Shown here in pieces: positions 60,817-60,971 of a DNA stretch of 64,000 nucleotides. This stretch comes from Escherichia coli (GTDB taxonomy: Bacteria; Pseudomonadota; Gammaproteobacteria; Enterobacterales; Enterobacteriaceae): assembly GCF_003334255.1 (NCBI RefSeq), contig NZ_QOWU01000006.1. The stretch is one strand, 5' to 3'. The position numbers were made by a program, and so were the translations under genes. Within the stretch, counting starts at the first letter, position 1; each line of letters starts with the position of its first letter. The notes beneath the pieces are model-generated. The model had not been told where the DNA came from and made no database searches. It worked only from the letters and a program-made list of their open reading frames with translations.

Positions 60817-60888
60817 GGAAATTCTCCATAACCTGGTCGTTTTTCCCATGATGGCGGCAGATAACGGTGTGTCTCAAGGTGCTGAAGT

Positions 60889-60906
60889 TGTATGGCGACG
60901 GGGACA
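60889..60906. promoter_or_regulatory. Candidate Ogr-dependent late promoter element (TGT-N12-ACA) in the divergent O/P intergenic region
   Basis: tgtatggcgacggggaca fits the P2 late-promoter dyad; the only perfect match in the 155-bp intergenic region. Confidence 0.45.
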
Positions 60907-60971
60907 ACACGGGCAGGTATCAGGCGGTATTGCTGAGGCTTAATCTTGCCCTGTTAATGTCAGGGGGTGCA

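Follow-up and report, generated by a model that had tools for sequence, protein, structure and literature searches.

The stretch of Escherichia coli DNA analyzed here (64,000 nucleotides, hereafter the window) carries a P88/Xuanwuvirus-like prophage of the P2 family, inserted between serS and dmsA, and the late region of this prophage makes up the right-hand third of the window. Two late operons diverge from a non-coding gap of 155 bp (60817-60971), bounded by the ATG of gene O at 60816 on the minus strand and the ATG of gene P at 60972 on the plus strand (Table 1). The initial annotation had delimited exactly this region and had named the flanking genes O and P; both names agree with the PHROGs and PGAP assignments (scaffold and large terminase), and the same O and P starts are given in the RefSeq PGAP annotation of strain DETEC-S792. 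When a 1001-bp query spanning the O/P gap was compared with 5426 complete E. coli genomes, relatives at ≥99% identity were found in 12 of these. DETEC-S792 is 100% identical to the window over this query, and its prophage likewise lies between serS and dmsA (RefSeq). The tail-fibre gene H of DETEC-S792 (locus L089, 8525-9544) is recorded in RefSeq as broken pseudogene fragments in an otherwise near-identical prophage; the H ORF of the window (48603-49943) is intact and encodes 446 amino acids.

The prophage has its own gene for a Cys4 activator of the Ogr/Delta/B family, which lies, as in P2, where the late region ends. PGAP names the product "ogr/Delta-like zinc finger family protein," and it is 52% identical to P2 Ogr over 54 amino acids. 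The two proteins differ in length and in the spacing of their cysteines: the window homologue has 100 amino acids and the arrangement CX2CX24CX4C (counted from the sequence), whereas P2 Ogr has 72 amino acids and CX2CX22CX4C. At the late promoters of P2, the inverted repeats recognized by Ogr are centred near −55, and late transcription depends on Ogr and on its contact with the C-terminal domain of the RNA polymerase α-subunit (PMC3152322); the consensus for the site is given in PMC3931495 as TGT-N12-ACA. Beside the ogr end of the prophage, a module of ~320 bp is tandemly duplicated (40006-40324 and 40478-40800, with a spacing of 472 bp). Two longer segments of the copies are 93–97% identical and a short segment is 84% identical; each copy contains an ORF for a 46-aa Hok/Gef-type toxin (40045-40185 and 40517-40657), and the second copy overlaps the final bases of ogr.

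Table 1. Coordinates of genes and predicted regulatory features in the window
Feature	Position	Strand	Details
ftsK, lolA, rarA, serS	32309-39805		Host genes left of the prophage
ogr homologue	40792-41094	−	Late activator of 100 aa with a Cys4 zinc finger; presumed to bind the dyad; Pfam PF04606 (Ogr_Delta), E=1.3e-15
Gene D	41139-42263	−	Late control D tail protein; divergent from FI and followed by ogr; PGAP; phrog_52
Second predicted shared activator site	42323-42344	.	GTTGTATGTGTATTGCGAGAAA, GTTGT-N12-AGAAA; core TGT-N12-AGA 42325-42342; centre 42333.5
Gene FI	42418-43605	+	Tail sheath; leads FI-FII-E-E'-T-U operon; phrog_23, E=8e-118; PGAP
Gene O	59980-60816	−	Capsid scaffold/head maturation protease; leads leftward late operon; phrog_73, E=1.5e-81; PGAP "GPO family capsid scaffolding protein"
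Predicted O operon start	60841-60842	−	55.5–56.5 bp from dyad centre; ~25-nt leader with GGAGA before ATG 60816
Predicted −10 of O late promoter	60848-60853	−	CATCAT; first base 44.5 bp from dyad centre
−35-like hexamer of O promoter	60872-60877	−	TTGAGA; in CTCAA(C/G)G block (plus strand)
Predicted Ogr-type activator binding site	60887-60908	.	Perfect inverted repeat GTTGT-N12-ACAAC, 22 bp; core 60889-60906; centre 60897.5
Predicted −10 of P (terminase/portal) late promoter	60941-60946	+	TAATCT; first base 43.5 bp from dyad centre
Predicted P-Q operon start	60953	+	G; 55.5 bp from dyad centre; 19-nt leader to ATG 60972
Gene P	60972-62705	+	Large terminase subunit; leads rightward late operon; PHROGs large terminase, E=3.8e-148; PGAP
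Gene Q	62711-63754	+	Portal protein; second in P operon; phrog_68, E=8.9e-143; PGAP

Within the O/P gap, nucleotides 60889-60906 read TGTATGGCGACGGGGACA, an inverted repeat of the TGT-N12-ACA type that characterizes P2/186-type promoters, located upstream of the late operons. This had been reported as the one perfect dyad between the O and P starts, and the count held: no second dyad with one mismatch or fewer to TGT-N12-ACA was found in the 155-bp gap. By itself, the six-base pattern is weak evidence. Six perfect copies were observed in the whole window, compared with ~15 expected in shuffles, and at the observed rate ~0.015 would fall within 155 bp; two of the six lie inside prophage genes, S (52902-52919) and I (50005-50022), where they are coding, match the longer form of the dyad at 8 of 10 positions without the full GTTGT/ACAAC flanks, and are probably due to chance. 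The O/P dyad could be read in the same way, as a functionless match to a short degenerate pattern that fixes only 6 bases. The extended form GTTGT-N12-ACAAC at 60887-60908, however, has no second 10/10 match in the 64 kb, and from base composition such a match is expected 0.05 times per window and 1.3e-4 times per 155 bp.

For analysis of conservation, 86 loci encoding O relatives (52–99% protein identity), plus P2 at 33%, were collected, giving 60 distinct O/P gaps with lengths of 142–161 bp in the relatives closer than P2; percentages of conservation were calculated from 15 representatives less than 88% alike. Alignment of the 60 gaps showed four conserved islands in otherwise variable sequence, namely the dyad, TAATCT, ATGATG and CTCAA(C/G)G, the last two of which (plus strand) read CATCAT and TTGAG, respectively, on the O strand. 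The dyad, the main one of these islands, occurs at the same relative position in all 60 distinct gaps and is the single conserved dyad there. Its GTTGT half-site is 100% conserved among the 15 representatives and the right half has an invariant A.A, whereas the N12 spacer is 63% conserved and the whole gap 67% conserved on average. Because the half-sites are conserved around a free spacer, the dyad has the signature of a protein-binding site. Across the 60 distinct relatives the dyad stays in one place while its spacer varies, and P2 and 186 have their annotated sites at that same position; this effectively refutes a chance match, to which we would assign next to no probability; taking the rarity of the extended match together with its positional conservation, the O/P dyad is, by sequence comparison, far beyond chance expectation.

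Many relatives carry AGA in place of ACA in the P-proximal half, so that a perfect dyad is not required, and the perfect dyad of the window is, as judged from the alignment, one variant within the tolerated range. The predicted −10 hexamers are 94% (P side) and 96% (O side) conserved among the 15 representatives, and the CTCAA(C/G)G block is 95% conserved. Counted from the dyad centre, the first −10 base lies at 43.5–44.5 bp on the P side and at 44.5 bp on the O side in nearly all relatives. An alternating CGCGCGCG tract is conserved in most relatives (L012-L088) just upstream of TAATCT, between the dyad and the P-side −10; the window lacks this tract and has GGTATTGCTGAGGC in its place.

The comparison with the P2 pO and pP promoters that the initial annotation had proposed showed that the window keeps the same geometry, with one site between two promoters. 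In the P2 record (AF063097), a single "activator binding site; pO, pP promoters" is annotated at 3057-3087, like the single site of the window, between genes for the same two proteins (O scaffold and P terminase). The annotated P2 starts, pP at 3016 (minus strand) and pO at 3127 (plus strand), are 111 bp apart, and the TGT-N12-CCA sequence at 3063-3080 has its centre (3071.5) at their exact midpoint; each start is 55.5 bp away from it, and each −10 43.5 bp away. The corresponding −10 distances in the window are 43.5 bp (P) and 44.5 bp (O). The −10 and discriminator on the P side are also similar (P2, TAGCCTTGCCGTG; window, TAATCTTGCCCTG). The two loci differ in other respects, with O proteins only 33% identical and O/P gaps of 173 bp (P2) and 155 bp (window). 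Furthermore, the P2 site is imperfect (TGG-N12-ACAAC in the orientation of the window), whereas the window dyad is perfect, and the window, differing in this from P2, has a recognizable −35-like hexamer on the O side.

A second precedent is provided by phage 186 (U32222), in which one B-protein site (3798-3817), again between the terminase and scaffold genes, is annotated for "activation of pV and p12 promoters." The P side of 186, TAGCCTTGCCCTG, has the 9-mer CTTGCCCTG in common with the window. Its site, TGG-N12-ACAAC, is imperfect, unlike the perfect dyad of the window, and 186 belongs to a different genus (Eganvirus), with an activator named B rather than Ogr. In Stenotrophomonas phage Smp131, one and the same 18-bp TGT-N12-ACA-like element (nt 4381-4398) was assigned to both PP' and PO' (PMC3931495), although this phage is distant in host and sequence and its site was assigned by sequence inspection only.

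On the P side of the window, the sequence TAATCT-TGCCCT-G parallels TAGCCT-TGCCGT-G of P2, in which the final G is the annotated pP start, as well as TAGCCTTGCCCTG of 186. Alignment to the annotated P2 start, together with the −10 spacing, places the predicted start of the P-Q operon at 60953, whereas the O start at 60841-60842 was derived from the −10 position and the −55 rule. The centre of the dyad is thus predicted to lie at −55.5 from the P start and at about −56 from the O start. Automatic alignment by MAFFT with the very divergent P2 gap set the P2 O start opposite 60852; the −10 would then be TTATCT, and the dyad would lie at about −45. This placement was rejected: TTATCT is not conserved in the relatives, in contrast to CATCAT (96%), and CATCAT is also what a consensus scan picks.

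That scan independently identified TTGAGA-18-CATCAT at 60877-60848 as a σ70-like pair with 9 of 12 consensus matches (4 of 6 in TTGAGA), whereas no σ70 −35/−10 pair was found on the P side of the gap. The conserved CTCAA(C/G)G block could be a genuine −35 element, and the dyad might serve one promoter only, most plausibly pP, with the O promoter being an ordinary σ70 promoter or otherwise controlled. We consider this unlikely. In nearly all relatives the O-side −10 stays at 44.5 bp from the dyad centre, a constancy that would not be expected without a relation between the two; the P2 and 186 annotations assign one site to both promoters; and constitutive expression of scaffold, capsid and lysis genes from this promoter would be harmful in a lysogen. 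What the recognizable −35/−10 pair could mean is that the O promoter is less activator-dependent than the P2 late promoters.

The O/P dyad is most likely one Ogr-type binding site that activates both divergent late promoters, a reading to which sequence and analogy together lend a probability of roughly 85%. The divergent P-like and O-like genes have exactly one dyad between them, at roughly equal distances from the two −10 hexamers (43.5 and 44.5 bp), and the earlier suggestion that it might serve either or both of the promoters can be narrowed towards both, given the one site annotated for two promoters in the P2 and 186 records and the matching geometry of the window. As envisaged here, the 22-bp GTTGT-N12-ACAAC (60887-60908) would be the single site for the Ogr-family zinc-finger activator of the prophage, situated ~55 bp upstream of two back-to-back late promoters. 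The rightward promoter (−10 TAATCT, start near 60953) would drive P-Q, and the leftward promoter (−10 CATCAT, −35-like TTGAGA, start near 60841-60842) would drive O-N-M-L and the genes downstream. Upon the lytic switch, Ogr would be made from the prophage and bind the dyad and, by analogy with P2, would recruit RNA polymerase through the α-subunit C-terminal domain on either side, so that one symmetric site might turn on both head-gene operons together. The start sites, the binding of Ogr and activation in both directions are, in this scheme, predictions drawn from homology and geometry.

The mechanism is already known, in that P2 and 186 are each annotated with one activator site for a divergent pair, and locating the late-gene switch in an unstudied E. 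coli prophage has little import beyond annotation. The comparison does indicate that many P2-family prophages retain the P2/186 design of one symmetric site and two divergent promoters, and that its spacing hardly varies among them. Exact predictions, both of start sites and for mutagenesis, follow from the fixed geometry, and the perfect dyad could be a clean substrate for studying bidirectional activation by Ogr-type proteins.

Phage P88 (Xuanwuvirus, Peduoviridae) has the gene order of the window, including an inverted FI-U block facing D, as do related enterobacterial prophages. Nucleotide identity between P88 and the window is ~71% over the O/P region, and P88 has one GTTGT-N12-A(C/G)AAC site in each of its P|O and FI|D gaps (154 and 157 bp); both P88 sites carry AGA, in contrast to the ACA of the window O/P site. 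No description of the P88 late promoters was found in the searchable literature. The window likewise has an imperfect dyad in its D|FI gap (Table 1). This gap is 154 bp long, and across 62 distinct relatives TTGTTGT-N12-AGAAC is its only strongly conserved island. The −10-like hexamers AAAGAT (FI side) and AACTGT (D side) are each 43.5 bp from the dyad centre. From its sequence and spacing, the D|FI dyad is probably a second shared Ogr site, and the P88-like lineage apparently employs the P2/186 design at two places. The ACA and AGA forms are both used in single phages, including the window prophage. The orientation is the same in both gaps, with the invariant GTTGT half towards O or D and the degenerate A(C/G)A(A/C)C half towards P or FI.

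The refined motif TTGT-N12-A[CG]A[AC] also bears on the identity of the bound protein. TGT-N12-ACA is not unique to Ogr, being also the consensus of the unrelated PpsR/CrtJ regulators of photosynthetic bacteria, and the dyad could in principle be bound by something else, be it a regulator of the host or a different phage protein (for instance Cox or the immunity repressor). E. coli is not known to have PpsR/CrtJ, which counts against such a protein. In the part of the window that is prophage, matches to the refined motif were confined to the two late divergent gaps, O/P and D|FI (in P88, both gaps and three other places had matches), the O/P dyad lies where the Ogr/B sites are annotated in P2 and 186, and the cognate ogr gene is present. 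Binding by a protein other than Ogr is accordingly given a very low probability, and an Ogr-family ligand remains the preferred assignment.

The FI-FII-E-E'-T-U block (42418-47993, plus strand) is inverted relative to P2 and faces D-ogr (40792-42263, minus strand). Because the block is inverted and transcribed away from D-ogr, D and ogr form a leftward unit of their own. The same inverted layout was seen in P88 and in 78 of the 80 FI relatives retrieved; of the other two, one had too short a flank and one had D beyond the fetched range. A scan for imperfect dyads upstream of V, FI and D had been suggested in the initial annotation. It was borne out for FI and D, which share the one imperfect dyad described above, and not for V, for which there is no separate promoter region: no P2-type pV site was found, S and V overlapping at 52382-52385 without an intergenic region, and inspection by eye of the 146-bp gap upstream of DUF1378-R (53667-53812) showed no dyad. 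Two further pV candidates were set aside, an 8/10 match at 53508 that lies inside the small DUF1378 gene and a 9/10 match at 56091 inside a lysB-like spanin gene.

In the gaps between O and G (47900-60900), neither a dyad nor a minus-strand terminator-like site was evident, with a few weak terminator-like sites located inside genes. Because no terminator-like site interrupts the gaps, the O operon may extend from O to the tail-fibre assembly gene, a distance of ~12.8 kb. We tentatively propose that in the P88-like lineage the whole late regulon might be run from two shared sites, O|P and D|FI, with no separate V promoter. The O operon would then reach as far as G, transcription from the D promoter would include ogr (late positive autoregulation), and the asymmetry of the half-sites might set relative promoter strength in each pair; this extended scheme is appreciably less secure than the shared O/P site itself.

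The lysis genes and R are separated, inside the late operon, by a DUF6645 gene (phrog_143; 53813-55879, minus strand) of 681–688 amino acids, which looks like cargo (a moron), with nothing comparable at this place in P2. Downstream of it are the AT-rich 146-bp gap and the small DUF1378 membrane-protein gene (53493-53666).
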